Below, piece after piece: positions 12,662 through 43,693 of a DNA stretch of 64,000 bases. Position 1 is the first letter of the stretch, and each line of letters opens with the position of its first letter. The notes below the pieces were generated by a model. It was not told where the DNA came from and did no database searches. It saw nothing but the letters and a program-made list of their open reading frames with translations. The stretch is from a virus: the IMG/VR virus record IMGVR_UViG_3300032722_000006, positions 64,001-128,000 of that record. The stretch is one strand, 5' to 3'. Position numbers and translations under genes: made by a program.

Positions 12662-12681
12662 AAGAATGGGAACCGCAGTCC

Positions 12682-13395
12682 TCATATGAGTGCGTTGAAC
12701 AGGTCCTTGTTGTCACCACAGTAGGCACCGAGCTTGTCGAGCCAGGCTTTCGACTTCTGTTTGAACATGATGGGCATCTTCGTCTTCTTGTCGTTCGACG
12801 CCTTGCAGACAACACCCTCGAACGTCATGCCGATGATCGTACCGGTACGCACGTTCTCAATGAACTGCGGCGTGACCTGCCCTGTGTATAGAGCCCGAGC
12901 ATGATCGATTCCCGCTCTTTCGACAAGGTTCAAGTACGCACCGGGCATCATGATTCCCTGATTGAAAGGCGCGATATCGAAGAGCGTGACGGTGATGTCA
13001 TCAGTCGGGTCATGCATCCCTGCAAATGACCTAGGTCCCCACATCTCGAAGAAGCACATGGCACGGTCATATCTTGCATCTTTGAGTGCCTTTGCTAAGG
13101 AATCGCCGTACTTGTTCAGTACGAGCTCAGGAGCGCGCCCGAACATAGGATCCGTGGCATCTACGAGGCGATGACGTGTGCCAAACTTGTGCCAACCCTT
13201 CTTGCTCGTCCACTCGGCTCGGATGTTGCTTCCGTCGAGCTTGTCGAACGCGATGATGGGCATGTGACACTCTGACGCATATGCGATCGACGGATACGTT
13301 TTCACAAGGCTCTCCGGATCTCTTCGTTCGTCAAATTCATTGTCTAGACGTGTGTCACGTCGCCTGTAATGCTCTTTCAACTTGCGTTCCTTCAT
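12682..13395 (-). CDS. RNA ligase, Rnl2-like
   Basis: FDKLDGSN, FFE, FEGVV, FKQK motifs. True start may be GTG at 13305. Confidence 0.8.
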   Translation of the reverse strand: MKERKLKEHYRRRDTRLDNEFDERRDPESLVKTYPSIAYASECHMPIIAFDKLDGSNIRAEWTSKKGWHKFGTRHRLVDATDPMFGRAPELVLNKYGDSLAKALKDARYDRAMCFFEMWGPRSFAGMHDPTDDITVTLFDIAPFNQGIMMPGAYLNLVERAGIDHARALYTGQVTPQFIENVRTGTIIGMTFEGVVCKASNDKKTKMPIMFKQKSKAWLDKLGAYCGDNKDLFNALI

Positions 13396-13470
13396 TCAAA
13401 CTACTTCCTGAAGATGAAACTCCTCTCTTCAGGATAGCACTGTACCACATTACGTTGCAGGTGTTCATTG

Positions 13471-13542
13471 AGCGACCGACGGGGTTCGGACCCGTGACCT
13501 CCTGGATGGGAACCAGACGCGTTGCCACTACGCTACGGTCGC
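13471..13542 (-). tRNA. tRNA-Gly(CCC)
   Basis: Cloverleaf, loop TT-CCC-AT. Confidence 0.88.
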
Positions 13543-13607
13543 AAAAACGATCTTCACCTTCTGCCTAGTTTGGATTTTGAGTGGGCCGATGGTCATCCCA
13601 CAAAGGG

Positions 13608-14021
13608 TTACTGATCGTTGGGAAAGACAAGATAATCAGAAGCATAATTCGTTGTGTTGAAATACTTTGTAGACTTCTCAAATCTAACACTCATTCCTCG
13701 AGTGTACTCTGTCAGTTTCTTCAACGTAACGTACAAAACCACGTTTCGATCGGTTACGTAAAGAGCCATCACATCAAACTCATCACCAATGTATGGTCGA
13801 GTGTGATCGTGTTGCTTACACGCTTCGAAAACAACAAGCTCATTCTTAGACGTTGAAGTCTTGACTTGAATTCTCGTGAATTTCGAGTTTTTGTATGCAA
13901 CGAGATCAATCTCGGATGAACCGGTGACCTCTTTAAAAACATCATATTCAAGACCGAGGAGCTGTTGTGTCACAGCTAGTTCACCAATCGTTCCTTTACG
14001 TGAAGTAGGTGAGGCACTCAT
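13608..14021 (-). CDS. PD-(D/E)XK homing endonuclease (I-Ssp6803I-like)
   Basis: KGTIGE...IDLV...RIQVKT motifs, lower GC, located between two Gly tRNAs. Confidence 0.8.
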   Translation of the reverse strand: MSASPTSRKGTIGELAVTQQLLGLEYDVFKEVTGSSEIDLVAYKNSKFTRIQVKTSTSKNELVVFEACKQHDHTRPYIGDEFDVMALYVTDRNVVLYVTLKKLTEYTRGMSVRFEKSTKYFNTTNYASDYLVFPNDQ

Positions 14022-14022
14022 C

Positions 14023-14104
14023 TGGAGCGGGTGGTGGGATTCGAACCCACGATGCTTTCGCGCCTGCTTGGAAGGCAGGTGATCTACCACTGACCGACAC
14101 CCGC
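14023..14104 (-). tRNA. tRNA-Gly(UCC) with extra variable-arm hairpin
   Basis: Loop CT-TCC-AA, variable region CGCGAAAGCATC, encoded CCA. Confidence 0.88.
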
Positions 14105-14126
14105 GTGTCTTTTCATAATTACTCTA

Positions 14127-15005
14127 CTACGCTGCGATGTCTCCGTTCAACCCTATCGAGATTCGCAGGTACCTCGTCAATATGTCAGTCTGGTCCTCGA
14201 GCACCGCTCGTTGGTGTGAGAATGCGAAGTGTGACACCAGTGCATTGCCGACGAGGTACAAGGGCCGTTTTAGTGCTCTCGGAATGCCCTTGGTCAAATC
14301 ACTTTCATCCCTAGGACCGACTCTACCTCCAAACAGGGCAAAATTCTCTCCTGCCCATGCCATGACGCCGATGCGCTGGTGTTGAATCGGAAGTTCCGCG
14401 TTGACGAAGTACAGAGATTTTACGTTCCCGGCGTTGAGAATGTCGAGGAATTGTCTGTGAATGTATGCTGCGAACTCACCGTTTGTGCATGCGTACGGGC
14501 ACCTCGGGTCACCTGTGCAGTGTCCTAGCACATCACCGATGACGCCTTCATCCTGAAGGATCTTGGTGATATGCGGGATGTTGAAGACGTTCGTGACGCA
14601 TGCGAAGTTCGTGGGCGCTCGTTCGATGACAACCGGCATGAGGTTCTCGAAGAACTCGTCGTGTACGTAGCAGATGTCATCGTCCATCTTCACGTAGATC
14701 GTGTTCGGAGCGACGCACGCTGCGTAGAAAAGGTGGATCGAACTGCTGTACTGGAAGTGCTTTCGCCTGGCGTCGTAGAGTTCCTTCTTGAGGGGGCCCG
14801 GCGAGAAGATGCGCTTGACCTTCGGGAACGTCGCCTCGAGTCGTTCGAAGTACGCTAGGTCAGCGGGTTCGTCCGTGTTCACCCAGAGTTGAATCTCATC
14901 GATGATGCTAGCGAAGCGATCAGCAAGCAAGTACGGGAGAAGGATACGCATGTAGCGGTATCGTCCCGATGGGATACAGATGACGACTCTTTTGTCCTGA
15001 AACAT
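14127..15005 (-). CDS. glycosyltransferase-like (GT-A) protein
   Basis: VVICIP...GR start and YVKMDDDI DxD motif. Confidence 0.65.
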   Translation of the reverse strand: MFQDKRVVICIPSGRYRYMRILLPYLLADRFASIIDEIQLWVNTDEPADLAYFERLEATFPKVKRIFSPGPLKKELYDARRKHFQYSSSIHLFYAACVAPNTIYVKMDDDICYVHDEFFENLMPVVIERAPTNFACVTNVFNIPHITKILQDEGVIGDVLGHCTGDPRCPYACTNGEFAAYIHRQFLDILNAGNVKSLYFVNAELPIQHQRIGVMAWAGENFALFGGRVGPRDESDLTKGIPRALKRPLYLVGNALVSHFAFSHQRAVLEDQTDILTRYLRISIGLNGDIAA

Positions 15006-15024
15006 GTCTAGACCTTGAACAATC

Positions 15025-15213
15025 CTATCTCATCGAGAGATGACCGCGTTCAGGCACCATGAACGTGATGACGTCGCCGCACGCCGGACATTCATGTTCA
15101 TAGACACCTGGTGTGAACACCATCATGCTTGGAGGATTGTGTTCTGGGTGTTTGCAAACAGGGCGGCGTTTGTAAGCGCTGGCAGCGTTGTCATCAATTC
15201 TTCGAGTAGGCAT
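15025..15213 (-). CDS. small Zn-binding hypothetical protein
   Basis: CxHxxHNPP...CPAC. Confidence 0.6.
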   Translation of the reverse strand: MPTRRIDDNAASAYKRRPVCKHPEHNPPSMMVFTPGVYEHECPACGDVITFMVPERGHLSMR

Positions 15214-15223
15214 GTATTCTCCG

Positions 15224-15310
15224 AGGAAGGTGAGGGATTCGAACCCCCGGGACCCGTTAGGGTCCTTCCGCTTTCAAGGCGGACGCAATAGGCCTCTCTA
15301 CCAACCTTCC
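15224..15310 (-). tRNA. tRNA-Ser(UGA)
   Basis: Loop CT-TGA-AA, long V arm. Confidence 0.9.
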
Positions 15311-15736
15311 AAATGTCAGTTTCTTACTGCGGTACGTCGGTGTTTGTGAGTGACAATTGGGACACAATAGTTTCAAGTTGTTCAAGATGTGATTCGTTGA
15401 ACATCCATCAATGTGATCAAGCTCAAGTGAGATTGGTTCTCCATTCCATGTGTCAATTTGACACTTTTCGCATTTGTATTCTTTCAGACCTTCTTTGACT
15501 AGTCTCTTTGAGAGATGCGCTGTTGGGTATCCTGGGTATTTTCCTTCAAGAATCTCATTGAGAGGTGTTATTGCGCTTGATCGATTACGAATTTGTCGAT
15601 AAAGACCGCAATCTCTCGCAATTCGTTCGAACGTTCGTTGACACACGCCACTTTTCGCAGCAGCTTCACGAAGATTTCTACTTGTTTCAAACAGATGAGA
15701 AATTTCCTCTCGAGTAAGCGCTGCATTATTTCCCAC
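15257..15736 (-). CDS. HNH endonuclease
   Basis: CEKC...LELDHIDG...NNLKLLCPNCHSQT. 3' end runs into tRNA-Ser. Confidence 0.85.
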   Translation of the reverse strand: MGNNAALTREEISHLFETSRNLREAAAKSGVCQRTFERIARDCGLYRQIRNRSSAITPLNEILEGKYPGYPTAHLSKRLVKEGLKEYKCEKCQIDTWNGEPISLELDHIDGCSTNHILNNLKLLCPNCHSQTPTYRSKKLTFGRLVERPIASALKAEGP

Positions 15737-15742
15737 GTTCAA

Positions 15743-16006
15743 TCATATACTATGATGCATGAGATTGCACCTCAGGGAATTCTGTCGGTTGACCACTGGA
15801 CAGTGATCGCAACGTTGCCGACAGCATCGGTGTGAGGACGTATCCCAACATGATCGTGATGACAGTGCAATTTTTCTCCTTTGCACGCATCGGGAGGCGT
15901 CCTGTAGACGCTCCCTGTGTCCCACCACATGTTTGCTGTCGCGCAAGATGTGCAAAGCATCATCATGACGATCAGGAACCATCTCTTCATCCTGATACAT
16001 ATTCAC
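15743..16006 (-). CDS. hypothetical protein (the overlapping 15772..15990 lipoprotein-like frame is an alternative)
   Basis: Two overlapping minus-strand frames. 15772..15990 has a signal peptide and a TSC lipobox. Confidence 0.35.
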   Translation of the reverse strand: MNMYQDEEMVPDRHDDALHILRDSKHVVGHRERLQDASRCVQRRKIALSSRSCWDTSSHRCCRQRCDHCPVVNRQNSLRCNLMHHSI

Positions 16007-16191
16007 CTCTTTTCCTCCTTGAGGGCATACAGTTCAGGGTGTTTGAGCGTGATGTGATTGACGTAGCAATTCACACAGATGATCGCCGGACACAGTTGGC
16101 AGACCCACGCTTCGCCACCGAAAGGATTGTCTCGGGAGGGTCGTTCATGCTGCTCAACCTGGCTTGAGCATGATGGACATTTCATGTACAT
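16003..16191 (-). CDS. small Cys-rich zinc-finger protein
   Basis: CxxC...CxxC...CxxC...H...H. Confidence 0.6.
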   Translation of the reverse strand: MYMKCPSCSSQVEQHERPSRDNPFGGEAWVCQLCPAIICVNCYVNHITLKHPELYALKEEKR

Positions 16192-16193
16192 TG

Positions 16194-16277
16194 CGGAATC
16201 GGCAGGACTCGAACCTGCAAGACCTTGCGGCTCACGGGTTTAGCAAACCCGCTGTTTAACCATTCACACACGATTCC
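16194..16277 (-). tRNA. tRNA-Ser(GCU)
   Basis: Loop TT-GCT-AA, long V arm. Confidence 0.9.
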
Positions 16278-16301
16278 ATGTCCCGTACGTGGGACCGACG
16301 T

Positions 16302-16529
16302 TCACCAGCAGCTGAACCCGTTTCCAGGGATACCATTGCAGTAGCAGATCACGCCTGTCGGCCCGGGCGGGATGACGCACCGACGCATTCCATTCGTGTC
16401 GCAGCAGTATGTCACGGGCTGAGCCTCAACTGGTGAAGATTGAACGCCGATGATTGCGAGTGACATGATGACGAGCAAGGTAGTGATGATCTTTTTCATG
16501 ATCAGACATATTACTACGTCAGATGTCAC
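16302..16529 (-). CDS. secreted small Cys-rich protein
   Basis: Signal peptide (MKKIITTLL...VEA) followed by 6 Cys. Confidence 0.6.
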   Translation of the reverse strand: MTSDVVICLIMKKIITTLLVIMSLAIIGVQSSPVEAQPVTYCCDTNGMRRCVIPPGPTGVICYCNGIPGNGFSCW

Positions 16530-16533
16530 TTGT

Positions 16534-16899
16534 TCAATCAGCCTTTAGACTACCCACGACCCTGTTGATCTCCTGGATAGAGCACGGTCCGAACGCTGCA
16601 CAGGTCGGCTCGTCCTCTTCATCGAGAAAAGGGTGCACCTCAACGTCAGCGAGCTGGGCGCGGAAGATTAGGTCCTCCAATGCTCCGAGCGATTCAACGC
16701 TCATGATGACGGGAGCGAAGGAACCTGACAACCACGTTGCCTCCGCGGGGGTCAACCTGATGTGGACCTCGTCCCCTCGTTCTGCCTCGTTATTGTCAAC
16801 AAGGAACATCATTGACGCATGCGCAATCTGAGCGGCCTGCTCGTTCTTGTGCATGTTCAGATCACGTCTTACCACGATGACTTGCTTCACGTCGTCCAT
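16534..16899 (-). CDS. peptidyl-tRNA hydrolase 2 (Pth2) homologue, possibly inactive
   Basis: KQVIVVRRDLNM...AAQIAHA...PTCAAFGP. The GK and DAGxT motifs are degenerate. Confidence 0.8.
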   Translation of the reverse strand: MDDVKQVIVVRRDLNMHKNEQAAQIAHASMMFLVDNNEAERGDEVHIRLTPAEATWLSGSFAPVIMSVESLGALEDLIFRAQLADVEVHPFLDEEDEPTCAAFGPCSIQEINRVVGSLKAD

Positions 16900-16959
16900 G
16901 GTTTCCTCCGCTTTTCAAAGATCGTACTACGACACCGGCATCCGAGGATGTTGATGTTG

Positions 16960-17031
16960 TGATCCCAGTCGGGTTCGAACCGACGTCCTCCACCGTGTCA
17001 GGGTGGCGCGCTACCGCTGTGCCATGGGATC
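16960..17031 (-). tRNA. tRNA-Val(GAC)
   Basis: Loop CT-GAC-AC. Confidence 0.9.
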
Positions 17032-17094
17032 GTAAAGGAGCATGCGAGTGCATGGTGCCTGCTCCTCTAAGTAGGAAGTTCGTCCGTCAGTGCG

Positions 17095-17433
17095 TCACTT
17101 TCCCGGACGTTTCTGCTGAGAACGCTCTCGGCGCTCCTTCGCGCGCATTCGCTTCTCGGGCTCAGCAGACGCGACGGGCGCGGTCGGTGCTCCTACAGCC
17201 TCGACCACCTTCTTCGCGTCCTCAATCTTCGCAAGGATGCGAGCTCGCTGCTTCGCAGCACCGACGCCCTTTCCCAATCGAGAATCGAGCGCATCCAGCT
17301 GTGCCTGAGGCGACAAGCCCGTCCAGTGCTTCAGACGCTCGGTGCCCTCTTCCTGCTGGATCTTCCTGTGGTCGGGTCGGGGTCCACCACCTGTGAACCT
17401 GCGATCAGTGTTCGTCCTCTTTGCTTGTCCCAT
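17095..17433 (-). CDS. basic hypothetical phage protein
   Basis: LSPQAQLDALDSRLGKGVGAAKQRARI. Start at MGQAK. Confidence 0.65.
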   Translation of the reverse strand: MGQAKRTNTDRRFTGGGPRPDHRKIQQEEGTERLKHWTGLSPQAQLDALDSRLGKGVGAAKQRARILAKIEDAKKVVEAVGAPTAPVASAEPEKRMRAKERRERSQQKRPGK

Positions 17434-17488
17434 CGTCTTCACCTGGTCCTTTCGTTCCATCAGACACACGGTGACCATCACCGTGCAG

Positions 17489-17563
17489 CACCCTCGGCAG
17501 GATTCGAACCTGCGTTACTACAGCTTAGAAGGCTGCGGCCTAATCCGTTCGAGCCACGAGGGC
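17489..17563 (-). tRNA. tRNA-Arg(UCU)
   Basis: Loop CT-TCT-AA. Confidence 0.9.
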
Positions 17564-17567
17564 ATTG

Positions 17568-17641
17568 TCTTCACGGCAGGATTCGAACCCGCGACCTCTC
17601 GCTTCGGAGGCGAGTGTTCTGTTCCGCTGAACTACATGAAG
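17568..17641 (-). tRNA. tRNA-Arg(CCG)
   Basis: Loop CT-CCG-AA. Confidence 0.9.
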
Positions 17642-17645
17642 ATTG

Positions 17646-17720
17646 TCTCCTCGGAGGGATTCGAACCCCCGACACCCGGTTTAGGAAACCGGAGTTCTAT
17701 CCTGGCTGAACTACGAGGAG
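17646..17720 (-). tRNA. tRNA-Arg(CCU)
   Basis: Loop TT-CCT-AA. Confidence 0.9.
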
Positions 17721-17813
17721 ATGAGAAAGCACTTTCACCTGCCGCCGATCCCTACGTGAGACAGCTCACGATCCGTGAACGGGACAAATTATGCTGCGGT
17801 TACTCATGCTATG

Positions 17814-17896
17814 TGCCAACGGAGGGAGTTGCACCCTCACGCTCTTTCGAACGGCGGATTCTGAGTCCGCTGTGACTGCTGTTCCACCACGTTGGC
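17814..17896 (-). tRNA. tRNA-Leu(CAG)
   Basis: Loop CT-CAG-AA, V arm. Confidence 0.9.
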
Positions 17897-17897
17897 A

Positions 17898-18314
17898 TTA
17901 CGTGACCTTCTTGACCCTGCTGACCCACCACCTTCGAGCGAACCTTGAGACGAGATACGCTTCCGCGAGCCGCTTCGATCGCCACACCCTCTGTGCAAGA
18001 GCGCTGGGTGAGTACGATGACGTGACAGTGTATCCTTTCCTGAGACCGTATGCGATCGCTTCAGAATACAAGGCGAGTCCCAATCCTTTTCCTCTGTGCC
18101 CCTGATCGAGGTTTGAGTGCGTCTCGTACACCCTGACGGGATGACCCGCACAGTTTGCTGATGCTTCGACTACATTGACACTTCCGATCTCCTTGCCGTT
18201 GAACTTTAGCTTCACGGTGTAGTCAGTGAAGTTTTCCTTAGGAGTGACGCTGATTGCGTATCCGGCCGGCAGCTGCATGAGACCAACATACCACGTCGGT
18301 CTACGGATTTGCAC
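17898..18314 (-). CDS. GNAT-family acetyltransferase
   Basis: Acetyl-CoA motif HRGKGLGLALY, then S..A..VW. Confidence 0.7.
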   Translation of the reverse strand: MQIRRPTWYVGLMQLPAGYAISVTPKENFTDYTVKLKFNGKEIGSVNVVEASANCAGHPVRVYETHSNLDQGHRGKGLGLALYSEAIAYGLRKGYTVTSSYSPSALAQRVWRSKRLAEAYLVSRFARRWWVSRVKKVT

Positions 18315-18786
18315 TCTCTTCTTCGCTCCGACATTCCTCCCTAATTTCCATTAGAAGTCGCCCGAGCCAGTTCTGACCTACACCTTTGTAAACGCCCCAG
18401 AACTTGTCACCCCACGTGTTACCCTCGACCAACGGGATATCTTCTGTCGCAAGTAACATTGACCTAAGAAGGGGGTTCTTGAATTTTTCCTGCAGCAGAT
18501 TCCGCATCACTGTCACCTTCTGTAGGTCCCAGTCAGTGGGTAGCTTGACAGAGTAACCGAGCTTTTTTGCAATGCCCGGTGACGCTGCTTCGCGGATCAT
18601 CTTCTTCGTCACCGGGTCGGATGACTTCGCCGCCTGGTACGCATGCTCCACTGTTGGGTAACGATCACCGTCGACCCAAATTGATGCTGCGTAGAAATTG
18701 CTCAAGAACCCAAACTCACCTCTGAAGTGATCGATTTCTACGGGTTTCTCTGACGGAAGCTGCGGTTGGCGTGTTTCGTCGCTCAT
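18301..18786 (-). CDS. NADAR family protein
   Basis: FLSNFY, YPTVEHAYQAAK, KF..PLLR..LL.T, LVEGN.WGD.FWG, G.NWLG.LLM. Confidence 0.9.
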   Translation of the reverse strand: MSDETRQPQLPSEKPVEIDHFRGEFGFLSNFYAASIWVDGDRYPTVEHAYQAAKSSDPVTKKMIREAASPGIAKKLGYSVKLPTDWDLQKVTVMRNLLQEKFKNPLLRSMLLATEDIPLVEGNTWGDKFWGVYKGVGQNWLGRLLMEIREECRSEEESANP

Positions 18787-19322
18787 CTGCTTCTTGTGAC
18801 CTCTTCGCAAACGCTGACGTCATCTTCTTCATCGAGTTCCGTCGCCATGAGCGCCTGGATCCTCGAACCGTCGCCCCAATGGATCTTGGCAACGTTGTCA
18901 GTCGCGTTGTGACAGTGACCGTGTGTGTAAGCAGTCAGAAGGTTGCTGTTCTTCATGCCTGCCTTCTGGCAGGCGGCAATGCTTTCGTCGAGATGGTGCA
19001 ATGCGACGGCGGCTTGCTTCGAGACGTCAGGTGAACACAAAGCTGCTTTTTCTTGATCGTTGAACGGGTGGACCTGGAATGCGCCGAGTGCCTCGCCATG
19101 ATCGCCTCTGACCTTGCATGAAACTACATCATCACGCCACCCACCGGTTTCCCATCGAGCGATCTTGATCAAGGTCTCGACCTTCTGAGGATCTGTCGTC
19201 GTTTGCACGATCGCATCGACGACATTTGTCATCGTGTGAAAATCGTAAGGACCCCAGTTAGAATTCCACGTGCTGTCTGTCAGGTTCATTGCGAAGATGA
19301 GGGCTGCCGTGGCTAGATTCAT
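18783..19322 (-). CDS. lysozyme/transglycosylase-like protein
   Basis: IARWETG...GDHGEALGAFQV. Confidence 0.55.
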   Translation of the reverse strand: MNLATAALIFAMNLTDSTWNSNWGPYDFHTMTNVVDAIVQTTTDPQKVETLIKIARWETGGWRDDVVSCKVRGDHGEALGAFQVHPFNDQEKAALCSPDVSKQAAVALHHLDESIAACQKAGMKNSNLLTAYTHGHCHNATDNVAKIHWGDGSRIQALMATELDEEDDVSVCEEVTRSR

Positions 19323-19427
19323 TCTTGTGTAGACTCCATGATGCCGGCGAGATAGGTGCCGACACCCCGTCATTATACTTCACCTGTAAAAAATGTTTCA
19401 CTGCCATGTGTTCATGATGAATAATTG

Positions 19428-19501
19428 TCTCCTCGGTGGGATTCGAACCCACGACCTCCGGCTTCGCAGACCGGTGCTCTAATCCGCTGAGCTACGGGGA
19501 G
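19428..19501 (-). tRNA. tRNA-Arg(GCG)
   Basis: Stem CCGGT/GCCGG, loop CT-GCG-AA. Confidence 0.88.
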
Positions 19502-19970
19502 ATGATGTTATGAGCCTCCACGGGATATTCGCCTTGACGACGCGGTCTAGCATGTCTGCTGTTCCGCGACTGTCCTGGACGTTATTGTGAAATGCTACGC
19601 AAACATCGATGGGCTCTTCTGCCTTGTGTTCTTTGTCAAGCATCTGCTGGTTTCTGATGGGACCCGCAGCGTTCTTGAACTGAATCCAATCAGCAGGATA
19701 CGCTCTGACCTCAAAGTCCAACGCTTCTGCAACTGCAGCACAGATGATGTCCGCACCCTTGCATGCACCGTGAACTAGGATTGTGCCGGGCCTGTAGCCC
19801 TTCAGAACCTCAACGACTGAGGTGATGTCTGACCACTCCCTGTCACCGGTGACGAGAATTTTCTTGATGATCGTCTCGGAAGGTATGGTTCGACGCTCCT
19901 CATCGTCACGACGCTCGTGATAACGACGTTCGACTTTCTCACGACGAATTTTGCCTGTTCTTTGTTTCAT
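19479..19970 (-). CDS. SLOG/YspA-like (DUF2493) protein
   Basis: ILVTGDR, LVHGACKGAD, AAGPIRNQQML, SRGTADM. Confidence 0.85.
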   Translation of the reverse strand: MKQRTGKIRREKVERRYHERRDDEERRTIPSETIIKKILVTGDREWSDITSVVEVLKGYRPGTILVHGACKGADIICAAVAEALDFEVRAYPADWIQFKNAAGPIRNQQMLDKEHKAEEPIDVCVAFHNNVQDSRGTADMLDRVVKANIPWRLITSSPRSSAD

Positions 19971-20047
19971 GGTCTCCCTGGAGGGATTCGAACCCCCGAC
20001 CTTCACGTTCGTAGCGTGCTGCTCTGTCCGGGCTGAGCTACAAGGAG
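19970..20047 (-). tRNA. tRNA-Arg(ACG)
   Basis: Loop CT-ACG-AA, encoded CCA. Confidence 0.9.
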
Positions 20048-20054
20048 ATGATTT

Positions 20055-20261
20055 TCAACGAATGTCGAGTTCAGAAAGTTTGACACAACTAACGTCGCCG
20101 TCGGAGTGGTACCACCCGTCTTCTGACCATTCAACGATGACGTATTCTGGGCCTTTCTTCGAAAGGGCGATGATCGTGCAACCACCGACCTGTTTAGGTC
20201 CACAGCACAAATCACGTAGGAATGCATGTTGACCGATGAGCGTCTTTTTCTTGCCTAACAT
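20055..20261 (-). CDS. hypothetical protein
   Basis: Leaderless promoter places the start at MLGKK. Confidence 0.55.
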   Translation of the reverse strand: MLGKKKTLIGQHAFLRDLCCGPKQVGGCTIIALSKKGPEYVIVEWSEDGWYHSDGDVSCVKLSELDIR

Positions 20262-20304
20262 GTGACGATCGTACATCATCAGACAGATGAATTACACTCT
20301 TGCG

Positions 20305-20335
20305 TCCTGGTGATGGGATTCGGACCCACTACCAT
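20305..20335 (-). pseudogene. orphan tRNA 3' fragment (T arm + acceptor strand)
   Basis: GTGGG-TCCGAAT-CCCAT-CACCAGG-A with no 5' half. Abuts the HNH gene. Confidence 0.6.
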
Positions 20336-20365
20336 TTACGTGACACGTGTTGTATATTCGTATAC

Positions 20366-20926
20366 ATGAACACTTGCCTAGAATGTCACACAGATACGTA
20401 TAACGCTATGTTTTGTTCACGAAAATGTGCGGTTACGTTCAATAATCGTGGTGTTCAACACAACAAGGTCAAACCAAGAAATTGCGCAAAGTGCGGTGAC
20501 GTTTATTTCAACGTTTGCGGTCGACGTTCTCGCCTCTGCGTGAAATGCAGAGAAGAATTTGATAACAGAAGCGATGAGATTGACAATCGAACGTTGCGTT
20601 TCTATTGGGATAAGACAGGGCAAATAAGCTCTCCTGCAACGTTTCACGAGGTACGACATCACGCCAACAGGCGAAACAAACACCGTCTTCAAGCATGTCA
20701 ACGATGTGGTTATTCAAAACACATCGAGTATGCACACATCAAACCCATAATCAGCTTTGATCTTGATACACCGATCAAGATCGTCAACGCTGAATCGAAC
20801 ATTCTGCTCTTGTGTCCAAATTGTCATTGGGAATTTGATAATGGACATCTAAAACTTGTGCCGGGAATGGGACTCGAACCCACGCATGTCACTGCTTATG
20901 AAACAGCCGCTCTGCCTCTGAGCTAA
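20366..20926 (+). CDS. HNH endonuclease
   Basis: Cys-pair N-terminus, CQRCGY...AHIKPI...N...LCPNCHWEFD. Confidence 0.85.
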   Translation: MNTCLECHTDTYNAMFCSRKCAVTFNNRGVQHNKVKPRNCAKCGDVYFNVCGRRSRLCVKCREEFDNRSDEIDNRTLRFYWDKTGQISSPATFHEVRHHANRRNKHRLQACQRCGYSKHIEYAHIKPIISFDLDTPIKIVNAESNILLLCPNCHWEFDNGHLKLVPGMGLEPTHVTAYETAALPLS

Positions 20927-20932
20927 CCCGGC
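20859..20932 (-). tRNA. tRNA with CAU anticodon (elongator Met or Ile2)
   Basis: Loop TT-CAT-AA. Confidence 0.85.
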
Positions 20933-21039
20933 ATGATGGGACGTAACCACCACGCCCCCACCACATTCTCGCTTTCACCTTCAACGTTGGTGTACGTTTT
21001 CCGCATATTCAATTTGCGAATCAGACGGTTACTCGCTCG

Positions 21040-21122
21040 TACACCCAGAGGGACTCGAACCCCCACGCCCTTTCGGGCACTGCAGCCTAAGTGCAGCACG
21101 TCTACCATTCCGCCATGAGTGC
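21040..21122 (-). tRNA. tRNA-Leu(UAG)
   Basis: Loop CT-TAG-GC, V arm. Confidence 0.9.
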
Positions 21123-21217
21123 ATGCAGGGGATTCTATGAACCCCTGTCAATGACGCGATCATCCGTTGTCATTAACTAGCGACGATCATTGTCGATGAT
21201 GACGATCGTCGTTATTG

Positions 21218-21290
21218 TGCCCCCGGAAGGAATTGCACCTTCGACATCCGGTTTCGAAGACCGGCGTTCTTTCTGCTGAACTACGGGGGC
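21218..21290 (-). tRNA. tRNA-Arg(UCG)
   Basis: Loop CT-TCG-AA. Confidence 0.9.
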
Positions 21291-21291
21291 G

Positions 21292-21639
21292 TGGGTGGTA
21301 CGTAAGCGGGATTTTGTCTAGGATGATCATTCCTCTGTGATGTGTGTCACCACACATCTATAGCAACAACCCGCATGCTCGGGCGAACAGCCCTCAAACG
21401 CACACTGTTTGTCTTGCTCCGGGAGGGACCCCTTACCGTCTGCATTGCTGCATTCGTGGTGGGCTCTTACTCCACCGTTTCACCATCACCTGATCCTCTT
21501 TTGTGAGGCCATCGGCTGTCTTTTCTCTGTTGAGTCTTCCGTCACCTTGCGATGCCCAGTCGTTAGCTGGTTCCCTGTTCTATGGAGTCCCGACTTTCCT
21601 CTGCGCGTATAGTACGCAGCGATCATCTTTCTCCACCCC
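21292..21639 (-). ncRNA. rnpB: RNase P RNA (bacterial type A-like)
   Basis: GAGGAAAGTCGGGAC and ACAAAATCCCGCTTA P4 halves, ACAGAGAA, GGTGAAACGGTGGAGTAAGAGCCCACC, GGAGCAAG, terminal P1 pairing, about 350 nt. Confidence 0.93.
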
Positions 21640-21641
21640 TG

Positions 21642-21724
21642 TGCCATCGGAGGGAATTGCACCCTCACACCCTCGCGGGCGCCGGAGTTTGAAACCGGTG
21701 TGTCTGCTGTTTCACCACGATGGC
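21642..21724 (-). tRNA. tRNA-Leu(CAA)
   Basis: Stem CCGGT/TCCGG, loop TT-CAA-AC. Confidence 0.85.
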
Positions 21725-21818
21725 ATTACTTTTTCGTTTAGATTCTGAAATTTGTTTTCGAGTTTCAATTGTATGTTTTCTTCCTCGAAATCTGTGTGTT
21801 CCGGTGATAGAGTGACAA

Positions 21819-22325
21819 TTAGGACACAAATATTCGAGGCTTGCCCGATCCCACCCATGCGTTGATTTTCACTTTTTCCCATTGTTCTGGTGGACTACCG
21901 TTCTTGCCTAGCTGCAGGATGTTCATTGTCCTGTGCCAACCTTCGTACAATTCGTACCCGTCCACCCTCTTGATCACGATGATCGGTTCGTTCTTTCCTG
22001 TTGAGACCGCGAGTTCCTTGTGCCTTGCCATTCGTTCTTCGTCATTGTGAACTTCGTATGGATTTATCGCACCAAATTGTCTCTCGAGGATGCGCCTGCG
22101 TGTGTCTGGAGCGAAGTCACTCAAGTTGACTATGATGACCTGTTGATGCCAATTGAGGCGATCGAATGCCTTGTACAGGGGATGTTCACCCATCCCAGTC
22201 CTATAGAAATCGTGTAGTACGTATTCAGGGATGTTTGGGTACTTCCTGCGAAGTTCCTTGTAGAGACCTTTCCATCTCATCTCAATGATCAGGCTGATCG
22301 CCTCACGAAGCAACGTCAACGACAT
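21819..22325 (-). CDS. hypothetical protein (ParB-like EGWHR motif) with LRExI leader
   Basis: EPIIV...LYEGWHR. ATAGTTA upstream. Confidence 0.65.
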   Translation of the reverse strand: MSLTLLREAISLIIEMRWKGLYKELRRKYPNIPEYVLHDFYRTGMGEHPLYKAFDRLNWHQQVIIVNLSDFAPDTRRRILERQFGAINPYEVHNDEERMARHKELAVSTGKNEPIIVIKRVDGYELYEGWHRTMNILQLGKNGSPPEQWEKVKINAWVGSGKPRIFVS

Positions 22326-22341
22326 GTCAGTAACTATTCTG

Positions 22342-22425
22342 TGTCATCGAGGGGACTCGAACCCCTACGGCCTTTCGGCCACAAGCACCTCAAGCTTGCG
22401 CGGCTACCAATTACGCCACGATGAC
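22342..22425 (-). tRNA. tRNA-Leu(GAG)
   Basis: Loop TT-GAG-GT. Confidence 0.9.
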
Positions 22426-22505
22426 ATTGGAGGAGGGAATCTGGTCGCCTCCCTCCGAGGGCGTTTTATGCTGATCGTCAGCAATTTCTTGCCTCCCAGG
22501 CCAGG

Positions 22506-22588
22506 TGCTATCGAGGGGAGTTGCACCCCTACGCCCTTTTGGGCACAACGTTCTCACCGTTGCGTGACTGCTGTTCCACCACGATAGC
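22506..22588 (-). tRNA. tRNA-Leu(GAG), second copy
   Basis: Loop GT-GAG-AA. Confidence 0.85.
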
Positions 22589-22600
22589 GTGTGATGTCTG

Positions 22601-22675
22601 TGACCCCAACGGGATTCGAACCCGTGTTCCCTGCTTGAAAGGCAGGTCGCCTAGGCCTCTAGCATTGATGGGGCC
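22601..22675 (-). tRNA. tRNA-Glu(UUC)
   Basis: Loop CT-TTC-AA, lengthened acceptor-D connector. Confidence 0.85.
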
Positions 22676-22802
22676 ATTTTCCACCTGCTACTGCTCAGCT
22701 TTTTTCGGCCTGCCGTAGCTTTCCGGGTGATGGAAACCGTTGATTTGGTGACAATGCGAAGTTCGTTTTCCGTTCAAATTCGGTGTCCTTTCGCATTGTC
22801 GG

Positions 22803-22877
22803 GGTGACTGACGGGATTCGAACCCGCGAATATCCGATTCACAGTCGGACGCCTTAGGCCTCTTGGCTACAGCCACC
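22803..22877 (-). tRNA. tRNA-His(GUG)
   Basis: Loop CT-GTG-AA, G-1:C73. Confidence 0.92.
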
Positions 22878-23025
22878 ATGAAACACTACTTCTTCTTGTT
22901 CTTCTTTTCGAACTGATCCTTGTAGACGTACATTGCAACGACAACGATGACGACGGCTGCAGCAATCTTGAGTTTGTTGTTCATATAGAGAACATACCAC
23001 ACCGGCTGGTGTTAGTACACTCAGG

Positions 23026-23097
23026 AGCTGACGAAGGGATTCGAACCCTCACACGGGACTTTACAGGAGTCCAACCCGACCGTTGGGCGACATCAGC
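23026..23097 (-). tRNA. tRNA-Thr(UGU), C33
   Basis: Stem GGACT/AGTCC, loop CC-TGT-AA. Confidence 0.8.
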
Positions 23098-23107
23098 ACG
23101 TACCTTT

Positions 23108-23180
23108 CACTTTCGCTCAGGACTTGAACCTGATCTTAGGCTTGGACAGCCCCGTGCAACCGTTACACTAGCCTCAAGAG
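23108..23180 (-). pseudogene. degenerate tRNA
   Basis: D arm and T arm (TCAGG-TTCAAGT-CCTGA) present, acceptor poorly paired. Confidence 0.5.
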
Positions 23181-23191
23181 TTACTCAGTCG

Positions 23192-23270
23192 TGGTCCCAG
23201 AGGGATTCGAACCCTCACGCATTCGCAGCGATTTTTAAGATCGCCGTGTCTACCGTTCCACCATGAGACC
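23192..23270 (-). tRNA. tRNA-Leu(UAA)
   Basis: Loop CT-TAA-AA. Confidence 0.9.
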
Positions 23271-23288
23271 AGGTTCATCTCTTTCACC

Positions 23289-23375
23289 TGCATTCGATGG
23301 GACTCGAACCCATAAGCCTCGTCAGAGGCGCCAGCCTTTTTGTCGGCCCGCGTATGCCATTTCCGCCACGAATAT
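23289..23375 (-). pseudogene. Leu-type tRNA with irregular anticodon arm
   Basis: Leu-like D, V and T arms, anticodon region GGCC-GACAAAAA-GGCT. Confidence 0.55.
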
Positions 23376-23394
23376 TGATGGTTACTTGAAACGG

Positions 23395-23467
23395 AGCGGA
23401 TGACGGGATTCGAACCCGTGTGTCCAGAGTGGCGCTCTGGTGCCTGAAACCTCTCGGCCACACCCGC
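23395..23467 (-). tRNA. tRNA-Gly(GCC), G32/C33
   Basis: Loop GC-GCC-AC. Confidence 0.82.
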
Positions 23468-23468
23468 A

Positions 23469-23544
23469 TGGAGCTGACGATGGGACTCGAACCCATGTGT
23501 TCCTCTTTACCGAAGAGGGGCGCCTGCCTCTGCGCTACGTCAGC
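23469..23544 (-). tRNA. tRNA-Thr(GGU), C33
   Basis: Loop TC-GGT-AA, encoded CCA. Confidence 0.85.
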
Positions 23545-23674
23545 GTTGAGTCGAGAGAGGGAGTCGGACCCACATGCCCTTCAGATGCCTACGACATCGT
23601 CCGGGCGGCCCGTGTTGGAACACGTGCTGTGCCTGCCGGTTACACCACTGAGGATCGTGCCTCAGGCCATGCGT

Positions 23675-24418
23675 TTACTGGGTCGGAGTCGAGAGTCGGA
23701 CTTGAACCGACATACAGCTGTTTTGCAGACAGCTCGCTGAATCATTCGCGTACCTCGACGTAAATTGTGCAATTCTTTCTTGAAGTTGATCAATCGTGAT
23801 CAATGATTTTGCATTCTTTCGTTGATTCTCTGTGTGACGAACTAGACGACAATTAGCAGGATGTGCTATCAACGTTGGATCGATCCCGAATTTGAAACCA
23901 TCAGCGATCGAAATCAGGTGATCACGTGACACTCCGTTCAAATTTCCTCCTCTGTTAGAGGCTGAATACCACCCGTATTGTTTAAGCAGATCAAGATCGA
24001 AATGCTCTGGGTAGTCATACACGTTGAACGTAAAGAGGCACAAGTACTTGTAACTCTCGCGTGAACTCCGTTGTTCGGCATGAAATCCCTTGTAGCACTC
24101 TACGTTACAAAATCGATGCTTTTGACGTCCTCGACGGCCGTACACACGATTGGGTTTCCCACACAAGTCACACTTGAAATCATGTCCGGTAAGCGATCTA
24201 CCAACGCCCATACCCTTCCTAGGAGAAGGTCGACCCTTCATTGTTTGTCGCGTTTTTTCCCTTGATTCTGCGCTTTGATGACGATGATGTGATGCGCAAC
24301 TCTGTGTGCAGTGTTTGCGTCTCTTTGGAGATTTGAACTGCTTCTCAGTGAGAAGCAGTTCAAACGAACTACCGCATGGACAGATGAACGCGTATGACTT
24401 ACGTGATACCTGATACAC
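23675..24418 (-). CDS. putative homing endonuclease (Zn-finger/NUMOD-like + HNH-like)
   Basis: CPCG, CDLC, SRDH...HPANC...ENQRK. Reads through tRNA-Cys. Confidence 0.7.
   Translation of the reverse strand: MYQVSRKSYAFICPCGSSFELLLTEKQFKSPKRRKHCTQSCASHHRHQSAESREKTRQTMKGRPSPRKGMGVGRSLTGHDFKCDLCGKPNRVYGRRGRQKHRFCNVECYKGFHAEQRSSRESYKYLCLFTFNVYDYPEHFDLDLLKQYGWYSASNRGGNLNGVSRDHLISIADGFKFGIDPTLIAHPANCRLVRHTENQRKNAKSLITIDQLQERIAQFTSRYANDSASCLQNSCMSVQVRLSTPTQ
23687..23759 (-). tRNA. tRNA-Cys(GCA)
   Basis: Loop CT-GCA-AA, U73. Confidence 0.88.
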
Positions 24419-24448
24419 GTCAAATTGTAATCTGATGTACCAGATTGT

Positions 24449-24958
24449 TCAAGAAAGCGCTTCCCATTCTTGATTGATGTCATCCCATCGCATGATGCGA
24501 TTGAGAAGCGTTATGTTTAGTCCATCAGTACGTTTGTCGTTTGGATCTGCGTACAATGTTGGGGGGTTGTCATCTTCATCAACACGAAATTGCATTGTGT
24601 TCAGAAGCTCTTTGGGAGACATTCGTTGGGGTTGACCACCCAAGCTTCTTAGCATGACGATCCATCTCCTCGCAGCGTTTGGGAACATCATCAGTACCTG
24701 TTCGGGAGTTAGGATTCCTCCGTATGCCGGTGCAGTCGAAACGTTCGGTCCAGCGCTTCTTCCTCGAGGAGCCGGTTCCTTGTATGCATCCATGAACGCC
24801 TCACTGAGGCCTTCGACGTTGATGTCTCCCACACGAGCAGGATCGTCAAGATCTCGATCGTCTGCATCATCACGGCTGTTCGCACCACGTGGCAATCTTG
24901 CATGATCCGCGACCGCCTCACGGATTAGGCGCCTGAGCTGCTTCAAGGAAATCTTCAT
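24449..24958 (-). CDS. hypothetical protein with MKISLKQLRRLIRE leader
   Basis: Shared leader and ATACTTA upstream. Confidence 0.7.
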   Translation of the reverse strand: MKISLKQLRRLIREAVADHARLPRGANSRDDADDRDLDDPARVGDINVEGLSEAFMDAYKEPAPRGRSAGPNVSTAPAYGGILTPEQVLMMFPNAARRWIVMLRSLGGQPQRMSPKELLNTMQFRVDEDDNPPTLYADPNDKRTDGLNITLLNRIMRWDDINQEWEALS

Positions 24959-24975
24959 GTCCTAAGTATTCGTTG

Positions 24976-25047
24976 TCCACACAGTTGGAGTTGAACCAAC
25001 ACCTCCGGGGCTTCACTCCGGCGCGCGACCACCTACGCAATGTGTGG
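24976..25047 (-). tRNA. tRNA-Phe(GAA), divergent
   Basis: Loop GT-GAA-GC. Confidence 0.75.
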
Positions 25048-25051
25048 ATAG

Positions 25052-25124
25052 CGGTGAAGGTCGGAATTGAACCGACGCGACCCTGCTCTTCAGGCAGGTG
25101 CTCTACCAACTGAGCTACTTCACC
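25052..25124 (-). tRNA. tRNA-Phe(GAA)
   Basis: Loop CT-GAA-GA. Confidence 0.9.
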
Positions 25125-25131
25125 ATGTTTC

Positions 25132-25207
25132 TGGAGCTAGCAGTGGGAGTCGAACCCACGTGTTCCTCTTTACGGGAGAGGGGCGCCTGCCTCTGCGCTA
25201 TGCTAGC
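25132..25207 (-). tRNA. tRNA-Thr(CGU), C33
   Basis: Loop CC-CGT-AA, encoded CCA. Confidence 0.85.
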
Positions 25208-25215
25208 ATACGTTG

Positions 25216-25288
25216 TCAGGGTCGTGGGACTCGAACCCACATTCTCTCGCGTCCGAGGCGAGCGGGGCTCCATATCCCCTTCACCCTG
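25216..25288 (-). tRNA. tRNA-Pro(CGG)
   Basis: Loop CT-CGG-AC, C1:G72, A73. Confidence 0.85.
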
Positions 25289-25289
25289 A

Positions 25290-25367
25290 TGGTCGGAATG
25301 GCGGGAGTTGAACCCACGATCTCTCGTCCCCCAGACGAGCGCGATAACCAGGCTTCGCTACATTCCG
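25290..25367 (-). tRNA. tRNA-Pro(GGG)
   Basis: Loop CT-GGG-GG, encoded CCA. Confidence 0.9.
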
Positions 25368-26152
25368 ATGATTGCTTTCGGGAATCTCTTCTTGGCGTAT
25401 TCGAGCCACTCGTACCTCACCTGAACAAGTACGTTACGAATTTCGACTGCATCACAGCCTTTCTTGACCGCCGCCGTAGCGAGTTCATCAAGATGTTCAT
25501 CGATGACCTTGATGAAGGGTCTCCGCGTACGCTTGGCGAGGTGATAAAATCCTGCGACGAACGCTTCTTTTTCTGCGTCAGAGAGCATGTACCTTGCGAA
25601 AGTCCTAGGACTGTTCCATACGCTGTCTGGGATTGACATCAAGTCCTGGCTAGCTTGAATTCCTCCGAGCAATTTTTCGTCCGACTGGACAGAGTGTTCA
25701 AACTCGTGCCTGATGACCTCGTACGATTGTTGCTGGATCATCGAGAGGTGTTGAGGCTTCATGATTCCTGTCGTTGAATCGACAAAAATCTTGATGGAGA
25801 GCAGGTCCTTGATGGGAGACCATCCTCCTGATATTCCGACCTTGTCGACCGGAGCAGGCTTGTTGAGCAAGTAGATCATTAGTTGCACCGTCATCGCAGG
25901 AGGTGCGTTCGGATCGGTTCCCAAGGCCCGTGATCTTTCACGACGACCTTCGGGTGTTCCGAACCAGTCCTGCCTCTTCATGAATGCCGGCCACGACTGC
26001 AGGTACTTCATGTTGATGCCGCCTTGCTTGTTGACCTTGTCCATCACCTTCTTGCATGCACGGATCAATTTCTGCGTCACCATCCTCGTGAACGAGTCGA
26101 TCTTTGATTCTGCAAGAAGCTCAATGACGACCTGTTCGTACAACGTATGCAT
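25358..26152 (-). CDS. HExxH metallopeptidase-like protein
   Basis: VIRHEFEHSVQ...Y.LS..EKEAF. Confidence 0.65.
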   Translation of the reverse strand: MHTLYEQVVIELLAESKIDSFTRMVTQKLIRACKKVMDKVNKQGGINMKYLQSWPAFMKRQDWFGTPEGRRERSRALGTDPNAPPAMTVQLMIYLLNKPAPVDKVGISGGWSPIKDLLSIKIFVDSTTGIMKPQHLSMIQQQSYEVIRHEFEHSVQSDEKLLGGIQASQDLMSIPDSVWNSPRTFARYMLSDAEKEAFVAGFYHLAKRTRRPFIKVIDEHLDELATAAVKKGCDAVEIRNVLVQVRYEWLEYAKKRFPKAIIGM

Positions 26153-26173
26153 GAATGTAACTATTCTCATCTG

Positions 26174-26246
26174 TCGGGGTGGTGGGACTCGAACCCACGG
26201 CAGCCTGCTTGTAAGGCAGGTGATCTAGCCGCTGATCTACACCCCG
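26174..26246 (-). tRNA. tRNA-Val(UAC)
   Basis: Loop CT-TAC-AA. Confidence 0.9.
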
Positions 26247-26252
26247 ATTGTG

Positions 26253-26323
26253 TCAACGCGCCGGGATTCGAACCCGGGTTTCCTGCTTGTGATGCAGGCG
26301 CTCTGCCGTTGAGCTACGCATTG
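26253..26323 (-). tRNA. tRNA-Val(CAC)
   Basis: Loop AT-CAC-AA. Confidence 0.88.
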
Positions 26324-26326
26324 AAA

Positions 26327-26370
26327 GGAACGCAAGTTGTCAATGAACGGGAACGTCATACTGGCGTTCC
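26327..26370 (-). promoter_or_regulatory. hairpin + boxA-like element (copy 1)
   Basis: CGTTCATTGACAACTTGCGTTCC is identical at 46450..46472. Confidence 0.5.
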
Positions 26371-26375
26371 ATCCG

Positions 26376-26449
26376 TCAGCGAGGGGAGATTCGAACTCCC
26401 GAAAACCTGTATCCAAAACAGGTGCCCTAGGCCTCTAGGCGACTCGCTG
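26376..26449 (-). tRNA. tRNA-Pro(UGG)
   Basis: Loop TT-TGG-AT. Confidence 0.9.
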
Positions 26450-26646
26450 GTCTACTTCTGTCTTCCGTCGGGAGTCTCTTCCCGGCTAGCCACTTTCAAC
26501 CCTTTAAGGGGCGTGGCAATCGAAACGGCAGTACGCCTGAGGTATGGGACGTAAGGCAACAGACGCTTCCGCGCCGTTCGCTCTCACTCGTCCTACCTGT
26601 TAGCATACTCGACATCATTTGAATGACTCGTTTCGTAATCTATCTA

Positions 26647-26724
26647 TGGTGATCCCAAGGGGATTCGAACCCCTATTTCTGCGATGAGAACGCAGCTGCC
26701 TAAGCCGTTAGCAATGATGGGACC
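26647..26724 (-). tRNA. tRNA-Glu(CUC)
   Basis: Loop TT-CTC-AT, encoded CCA. Confidence 0.85.
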
Positions 26725-43305: not shown

Positions 43306-43306
43306 G

Positions 43307-43630: not shown

Positions 43631-43693
43631 TTCCCTGCCACTGTCGAGGGATTGTGAAGACGACGTAGATAAACCGTAAAACATTGCGTGTAG

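Follow-up and report, generated by a model that had tools for sequence, protein, structure and literature searches.

Results

An RNase P RNA gene between two tRNA genes

The window analysed in this study is a stretch of 64,000 nucleotides that forms bases 64001-128000 of a 145,283-bp IMG/VR virus record. CheckV rates the completeness of the record at 39%, which implies a genome of about 370 kb. When the window was compared with all Rfam models by cmscan, the interval 21640..21287 on the minus strand matched the bacterial class A RNase P RNA model, RNaseP_bact_a (RF00010), with 224.4 bits and an E-value of 1.5e-71; the gathering score of this model is 100 bits. Model positions 1-367 of 367 were aligned without truncation, and a scan of the whole record gave the same result. 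Class A was kept as the match within clan CL00002, with the P13, P14 and P18 segments all aligned; these mark class A, where class B has P5.1, P10.1 and P15.1. An earlier note on this DNA, made from the letters alone, had placed an RNase P RNA at 21292-21639 and had named a covariance-model search with RNaseP_bact_a as the way to check it. The search, with its score of more than twice the gathering value over the whole model, returned that very object. The gene and its two neighbours are listed in the order in which they would be read.

21641..21724, minus strand: tRNA-Leu(CAA), directly upstream of the RNase P gene (ARAGORN; Rfam tRNA model, 46.2 bits; acceptor-stem parse)
21291..21640, minus strand: RNase P RNA gene, rnpB-like, bacterial class A, about 350 nt (full RF00010 model)
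21217..21290, minus strand: tRNA-Arg(UCG), directly downstream of the RNase P gene (ARAGORN; Rfam tRNA model, 67.8 bits)

The 3' limit of the RNase P gene was put at 21291 because G+1 of tRNA-Arg is position 21290. On the other side, the acceptor stem of tRNA-Leu(CAA) ends at 21643 and its discriminator A is 21642; CCA is not encoded, the letters being A-C-A and then P1. The order on the RNA strand is thus the Leu discriminator A, C, A, the P1 5' strand, the body of the ribozyme, the P1 3' strand, A, C and G+1 of tRNA-Arg. Read from the sequence, the spacers between the RNase P gene and its flanking tRNAs are 2 nt on each side, in agreement with the packing of 1-2 nt that had been claimed, and the 3' tail "AC" of the RNase P RNA is at the same time the 2-nt leader of tRNA-Arg(UCG).

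With 224 bits, the gene scores well under the 300-350 bits that are typical of rnpB in 95 Gammaproteobacteria, and it falls within the range of divergent cellular rnpB genes, such as those of Usitatibacter (218), Ilumatobacteraceae (202) and a Chloroflexi MAG (191). Of the 101 genomes in the survey of Gammaproteobacteria, a single one is unpublished; its sequence was left unused, and nothing stated here depends on it. The object is confirmed as a full-length bacterial class A RNase P RNA, an ordinary member of RF00010 in a previously unreported kind of carrier.

Anatomy of the ribozyme

The principal elements of the RNA, all on the minus strand, are listed from its 5' end to its 3' end.

21633..21639, minus strand: P1 5' strand GGGGUGG, the pairing partner of CCACCC at 21293-21298
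21588..21596, minus strand: P4 5' strand AAGUCGGGA, with bulged U (model alignment)
21422..21575, minus strand: specificity domain P7-P14, complete, limits approximate (all model segments aligned)
21368..21373, minus strand: L15 loop CGGGUU with the GGU motif (GGU kept in 11 of 11 phage homologues)
21339..21359, minus strand: P18 hairpin with GUGA tetraloop (two-sided changes in 8 of 11 P18 pairs)
21327..21337, minus strand: J18/2, 3' of P18
21321..21328, minus strand: P2 3' strand, 3' of P18 and J18/2
21312..21319, minus strand: J2/4 AGACAAAA, just before the P4 3' strand (model alignment)
21304..21311, minus strand: P4 3' strand UCCCGCUU (model alignment)

The specificity domain (S-domain) holds P8, an L9 GCAA loop, J11/12, P12, J12/13, P13 and P14 with a GCAA loop, and both J11/12 and J12/13 are A-rich joints. 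P2 is a perfect helix of 7 bp (GAUGAUC/GAUCAUC), and P3, P5, P7-P11 and P15-P17 were aligned as further elements. GNRA loops cap three of the hairpins: GCAA in L9, GCAA in L14 and GUGA in L18. In class A enzymes the GGU of L15 is the pairing site for the 3' CCA of the tRNA, and the S-domain serves to recognise the T-loop. The substrate-reading elements of canonical type, namely a full S-domain, the L15 GGU and J5/15, are all present.

In class A RNAs, P4 is a pseudoknot helix with a bulged U, and the conserved GAGGAAAGUC and ACAGAA..GCUUA blocks flank it. The bulged U is present here, and the 5' strand, AAG-U-CGGGA, pairs with UCCCGCUU at all positions. As compared to the usual AAGUCCGGG/CCCGGCUU, two pairs are altered on both sides, one from C-G to G-C and one from G-C to A-U, so that the compensatory changes described in the earlier note are borne out on both strands. 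We considered whether this variant could be a phage signature or adaptation and rejected the idea, as a scan of one genome per prokaryotic species found the variant 5' block in at least 120 cellular genomes. Among the matches listed, these are mostly Acidimicrobiia, with some Burkholderiales/Usitatibacter, Clostridium and Acidobacteriota, and in the 5 genomes with the variant that were searched whole the variant copy is the sole RNase P RNA. The P4 sequence is therefore an ordinary natural variant. J2/4 likewise differs at one conserved base and reads ACAAAA in place of ACAGAA. Of 151 sequences that were compared, 10 share this G-to-A change, counting the window copy and cellular ones, and it is therefore not a defect.

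The tRNA array and its predicted substrates

ARAGORN finds 51 tRNA genes in the window, all on the minus strand, where about 50 had been claimed. They fall into two blocks.

12570..26724, minus strand: tRNA array block 1, with 34 tRNA genes interspersed with small ORFs and homing endonucleases; the RNase P gene lies in this block
43231..46905, minus strand: tRNA array block 2, with 17 tRNA genes (ARAGORN)

C74 directly follows the discriminator in 50 of the 51 tRNAs, while CCA is encoded in only 9 of them. The leaders carry A(-2) in 41 of 51 cases and U(-1) in 35 of 51, with either U or C at -1 in 48, and the 3' tail "AC" of the ribozyme matches this leader pattern. Judged by their sequences, the phage pre-tRNAs would suit a class A enzyme, as they offer C74, the partner of the L15 GGU, together with U(-1) and A(-2). 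The conservation of C74 may reflect pairing with the L15 GGU, or else a particular 3'-end pathway; the CCA-adding enzyme family PF01743 had no match in the record. The suggestion that the RNA is tuned to aberrant substrates found no support: the RNA has standard recognition elements, and hence gives no sign of such tuning, and the pre-tRNAs carry canonical U(-1) and C74.

At 12570-12661 (minus strand) ARAGORN reports a 92-nt tRNA with encoded CCA and an anticodon, UUA, that would decode the stop codon UAA; it falls below threshold with the Rfam tRNA model. Recoding of UAA is not obvious, since ORFs read with the standard code take up 85% of the record. The genes at 23289-23375, 45616-45686 and 45688-45762 (all on the minus strand) are tRNA-like, with irregular anticodon loops and an anticodon that ARAGORN leaves undefined.

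Relatives in other large virus records

Relatives were found by pattern scans of IMG/VR followed by cmscan, and all of them lie in tRNA-rich stretches of large virus contigs.

L002 and L003: contigs of 279 kb (95% complete) and 129 kb; RNase P RNA of 268.5 bits
L007: contig of 94 kb; RNase P RNA of 262 bits
L008: contig of 252 kb; RNase P RNA of 263 bits
L010: contig of 102.5 kb; RNase P RNA of 259 bits
L147, L148 and L150: contigs of 446.5, 94 and 33.6 kb; RNase P RNA of 283-288 bits
L137: contig of 463 kb; RNase P RNA of 208 bits
L142: contig of 101 kb; RNase P RNA of 209 bits
L004 and L009: contigs of 74 and 205 kb; 340-627, minus strand, and 7749-8036, plus strand; RNase P RNA of 288 nt, 167 bits
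L006: contig of 14 kb; 6109-6388, minus strand; RNase P RNA of 280 nt, 82.6 bits, below the Rfam cut-off, with the S-domain mostly gone

L004/L009 and L142/L139 are duplicate pairs. The stretches fetched around these genes hold 2-26 tRNAs each, with at least 10 in most and 2-6 in L147, L148 and L150. In five other distinct phage RNAs, from L004/L009, L007, L137 and L142, too, a tRNA begins 0-6 nt past the RNase P gene. Cellular rnpB loci are different in this respect: of 105, a single one was accompanied by as many as 3 tRNAs, and not one lay in an array. Near-universal C74 was found in each of the other RNase-P-bearing phage arrays surveyed (L002, L007, L008, L009, L010, L137, L142, L149, L138 and L006), for example in 21 of 21 tRNAs in L007, 4 of them with CCA, and in 22 of 23 in L010, 7 with CCA.

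Two further observations concern these records. A tmRNA gene lies at 4074-4409 (minus strand) in L007 and at 7997-8332 (plus strand) in L010, a few kb from the RNase P gene and in the same tRNA-rich stretch. The record of L147, at 446,541 bp, is classed as a provirus and rated as 100% complete; its one match to a tail sheath was weak (E 9.4e-6), and it is taken here as a putative virus.

An alignment of 11 phage copies contained 68 consensus pairs. In these, 93.6% of the cells were paired, and 49 of the 68 pairs were changed on both sides. Among 500 shuffles none reached the value of the alignment, and slid controls paired just 34-46%. P4 was paired in 100% of the cells of the phage homologues, with two of its pairs covarying (G-C/U-G/C-G and G-C/U-A); P1 covaried in 10 of 10 pairs, and P14 and P18 covaried as well. 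Such pairing and covariation suggest an RNA that has been kept functional over long divergence, this being the pattern expected of one.

The protein subunit and the function of the RNA

The protein subunit of the bacterial enzyme, RnpA (PF00825), was matched nowhere in the 145-kb record, and the outcome was the same for seven further virus records with an RNase P RNA, 3 of which are at least 95% complete; a control search with the same model was positive in 10 of 14 control genomes. The statement of the earlier note that no rnpA is visible in the window thus extends to the whole record and to seven more. Since the record lacks rnpA, the RNA must use the RnpA of the host, an unrecognised partner or no protein at all, and host RnpA is most likely. 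J18/2 and J2/4, which are neighbours of the protein in the known structures of class A holoenzymes, are conserved in the window RNA, and class A RNAs function with RnpA proteins from other species.

We regard it as probable, with good confidence, that the phage gene specifies a functional RNase P RNA and with it the catalytic part of an enzyme that cuts tRNA 5' leaders; this RNA would be freed from the tRNA array and partnered with host RnpA. A different function could be imagined for the same molecule, in which it serves mainly as a decoy or competitor that soaks up host RnpA or pre-tRNAs and so redirects or throttles host tRNA maturation. With rnpA absent from all eight records, the RNA must indeed compete with the M1 RNA of the host for RnpA, and a camelpox RNase P-like candidate that proved inactive has been discussed as a possible decoy (PMC3001073). 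However, a sponge for the protein would require the protein-binding region alone, whereas here conservation extends over the catalytic core (the bulged U of P4, J2/4, J5/15 and the L15 GGU) and over the S-domain in full, helices covary throughout and the phage's own tRNAs retain the signals for RNase P recognition. We therefore give this alternative a low probability.

Divergence, phylogeny and shortened copies

The window copy shares 67% identity with the phage relative closest to it and about 64% with the nearest sampled cellular sequence; at the latter distance it is not a recent capture. FastTree placed nine phage copies, including that of the window, in one clade with a local support of 0.987. 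IQ-TREE grouped eight full-length phage copies, the window's included (SH-aLRT 96, ultrafast bootstrap 26), and set this group beside the Gammaproteobacteria sample with a weak support of 23/87. Both trees are to be read with an alignment that is not structure-based, with long branches and with a cellular sample biased towards genomes with the P4 variant plus 30 Gammaproteobacteria. Within the sampled genomes neither method resolves a cellular sister, and the phylogeny that had been proposed as a way to the donor or host led to no donor. On these comparisons the phage copies appear more like each other than like any sampled cell, with no close donor found.

L004/L009 and L006 are shortened forms on contigs that share the P4 variant, and, taken with the full-size copies, they look like a reduction series. 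These forms bear on the idea that the gene is a passenger or decaying relic, a host rnpB taken up with neighbouring DNA, unused and heading for loss. The shortened copies (288 nt in L004/L009; 280 nt and 82.6 bits in L006) speak for it, as does a bit score in the window that is lower than that of most cellular copies (224 versus 300-350). Yet the fold is intact at no more than about 64% identity to any sampled cellular sequence, the exact tRNA-ribozyme-tRNA packing recurs, and the clustering and covariation of the phage copies require long purifying selection inside phages. A relic is, in our estimate, very improbable, and we retain the reading of a working RNase P RNA.

The carrier is probably a huge phage

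The record encodes a baseplate-like pair. A 156-aa protein matches GPW_gp25 (baseplate wedge) with an E-value of 7e-5, below the Pfam cut-off, and the adjacent 614-aa protein matches a PHROG baseplate wedge family (E 1.6e-6). By language-model features and by predicted structure the nearest clusters of the 614-aa protein are viral, and Baseplate_J or Gp6-like families occur in several of those found by features. After the pair comes a series of very large orphan ORFs. Other genes typical of phages are those for Rnl1- and Rnl2-type (T4-type) RNA ligases, endonuclease VII and, within the tRNA array, several HNH/NUMOD homing endonucleases, and the record also encodes an ATP-dependent DNA ligase, a sigma factor, NAMPT, PTH2 and an L7/L12 C-terminal domain. 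Apart from the tRNAs, no rRNA or other Rfam RNA was found in the rest of the record.

Several of these genes concern RNA or translation. A T4 Rnl1-like RNA ligase lies at 10195-11463 (minus strand), and two more RNA-ligase ORFs (phrog_548) lie in the window, one of which may be the source of a PF09414 RNA_ligase match. The L7/L12 C-terminal domain ORF is also in the window, and the ORF for the peptidyl-tRNA hydrolase PTH2 is in the record outside the tRNA blocks. The RNA and translation genes around the tRNA and RNase P region suggest that tRNAs are repaired as well as supplied.

Genes for a capsid, a portal or a terminase could not be recognised in the record, a fragment rated as 39% complete. 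The Pfam models Terminase_6N, Terminase_6C and Phage_sheath_1 had no match here, nor in relatives rated 95-100% complete; the absence of Pfam virion hallmarks says little, since the same models miss such complete relatives. A PHROG match to a "head maturation protease" was set aside, as it is actually ClpP beside a helicase and not a gene of a head module. A search for a 1248-aa ORF had no match in four other RNase-P-bearing records, and a search by way of the upstream 168-aa ORF found no syntenic relatives.

The DNA of the stretch recurs in at least 12 lake-water metagenome runs. A lake-water contig from an independent sample (X6) is identical over 21227-22400, which takes in tRNA-Arg, the RNase P gene and tRNA-Leu, and a contig from X5, which may be the same sample as the record, is identical over 20800-22210. 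As the identical contig comes from an independent assembly, the junctions are not an artefact of one assembly and a chimeric join is unlikely.

The earlier note had taken the contig for phage and not cellular DNA, and the baseplate-like pair, the RNA ligases, the homing endonucleases and the lack of rRNA show it to be phage-like. The least probable of the alternatives, to which we give hardly any credence, is that the carrier is cellular DNA, for instance from a chromosome, a megaplasmid or a tRNA-array island, which was either misclassified or joined to phage DNA by the assembler. The missing capsid, portal and terminase genes speak for it, as do the glycosyltransferases, ClpP and sugar-nucleotide enzymes of the record and the cellular or probably cellular nature of some GenBank "phage" records and short IMG/VR contigs in which RNase P was found. 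The gp25/gp6-like pair with its viral nearest clusters, the homing endonucleases and T4-type RNA ligases in the array, the lack of rRNA, the junctions shared with an independent sample, and at least 8 other large virus records with RNase P in tRNA-rich stretches, as against cellular rnpB loci without such arrays, all oppose it. The carrier is most probably a huge freshwater phage.

Discussion

Expression and release of the RNA

Around the RNase P gene, a search for promoter or terminator consensus found nothing above chance on the strand of the gene. Co-transcription with the array is the simplest reading of this result, which fits it and does not show it. The RNase P gene would then be transcribed with the tRNA array as a single long minus-strand precursor, and its RNA would be released as the neighbouring tRNAs mature. 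Maturation of the abutting tRNA-Leu(CAA) at its 3' end would leave the 5' end of the RNase P RNA. The 3' end of the RNase P RNA would be made by an RNase P cut at the 5' end of the abutting tRNA-Arg(UCG); since the tail "AC" is the leader of this tRNA and fits the array pattern, cleavage of tRNA-Arg would create the 3' end of the ribozyme. The first such cuts would fall to the host enzyme and later ones to the phage-made enzyme. We infer this route of release, and it is well supported by the anatomy of the locus, by its recurrence in other phages and by a precedent in yeast mitochondria that is described below. Once freed, the RNA would join host RnpA and add 5'-processing capacity for a burst of about 51 phage pre-tRNAs, probably while transcription of host rnpB falls and perhaps after host transcription is shut off.

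RNA runs that share words with the stretch (X19 from soil and X20 from moss) held only RNase P RNAs of other organisms, at a likeness of 85-95%, and neither gave cover on the ORFs that flank the RNase P gene. One 167-nt contig of the X20 moss metatranscriptome is 91% identical to 21302-21467, the 3' half of the RNase P RNA. Where the contig departs from the window in P18, the changes compensate each other (21343-21346 versus 21351-21353), and it is closer than any DNA relative found.

A possible phage lineage of RNase P

The results allow a wider reading, which we offer as a tentative proposal that may well prove wrong. Huge phages might hold an old RNase P ribozyme lineage of their own, not recent captures from hosts, in the form of a self-releasing module that frees its own 3' end by cleaving the abutting tRNA. 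The module might be co-adapted with its substrates, given that nearly all array tRNAs keep C74 even without encoded CCA and carry an A(-2)U(-1) leader, and it might let the phage take over tRNA maturation with host RnpA after shut-down of host transcription.

Whatever its history, the locus presents a natural tRNA-ribozyme-tRNA cassette whose enzyme may cut out its own 3' end, and it offers an RNA subunit that would have to work with a foreign protein subunit. The full-length, shortened and heavily reduced forms within one related phage group could show which parts of the ribozyme are dispensable.

Comparison with known systems

RNase P RNA is, to our knowledge, one of two universal cellular ribozymes, and we know of no standard phage annotation pipeline that searches for it; phage RNase P RNA genes would for this reason now go unannotated. 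In GenBank phage records, RNase P matches were seen only in mislabelled bacterial assemblies and in three unannotated faecal "Bacteriophage sp." contigs. The record "Acinetobacter phage MD-2021a" (CAKLQF020000022.1, match at 47360-47657; our locus L181) was rejected as a piece of bacterial chromosome, with coaD, fdx, a LysR regulator and a prophage integrase beside rnpB. CAKLQH020000044.1 and AGRM01000002.1 (including a Salmonella assembly) are phage-collection records that are likewise bacterial, and their RNase P genes are the hosts' own. The three human faecal contigs (MT835553.1 at 23882-24180, MT836823.1 at 4029-4301 and MT835850.1 at 1-185) are 8.6-33.6 kb long, with about 68% identity to bacterial RNase P RNA.

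We found no literature report of a phage-encoded RNase P RNA, and the camelpox candidate is the only virus case found. The camelpox RNA has a loose structural similarity to RNase P RNA and no pre-tRNA processing activity (PMC3001073). Both RNAs are virus-encoded and have been likened to RNase P RNA, the phage RNA being an unambiguous member of the family.

Among phage systems, the translation genes of huge phages (tRNA arrays, tmRNA and ribosomal proteins; Al-Shayeb et al. 2020, PMC7162821) belong to the same type of genome and follow the same logic, in which a phage brings along components for translation; the main text of that survey mentions tmRNA and not RNase P. A full-size, conserved phage copy extends the list of translation parts in huge phages to tRNA maturation.

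Compared with the class A RNase P RNAs of bacteria, such as M1 RNA (rnpB) of Escherichia coli and the P RNA of Thermotoga maritima, the phage RNA belongs to the same family, with helices P1-P18 including P13, P14 and P18, the same P4 pseudoknot with its bulged U, the L15 GGU and conserved J18/2 and J2/4. In contrast to cellular rnpB, it is encoded by a virus without rnpA, sits between tRNAs with 2-nt spacers and is at most about 64% identical to the sampled copies.

The nearest likeness in gene arrangement is RPM1 of yeast mitochondria, which tRNase Z and RNase P free from a tRNAfMet-RPM1-tRNAPro precursor (PMC3866640). The two units are alike in their flanking tRNA genes, in a shared precursor and in a protein subunit that is encoded in another genome, although for the phage this mechanism is drawn by analogy. 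RPM1 is highly reduced, AU-rich and organellar, with a second promoter of its own and longer spacers, whereas the phage RNA is a full-size class A molecule with tRNAs within 2 nt of both its ends.
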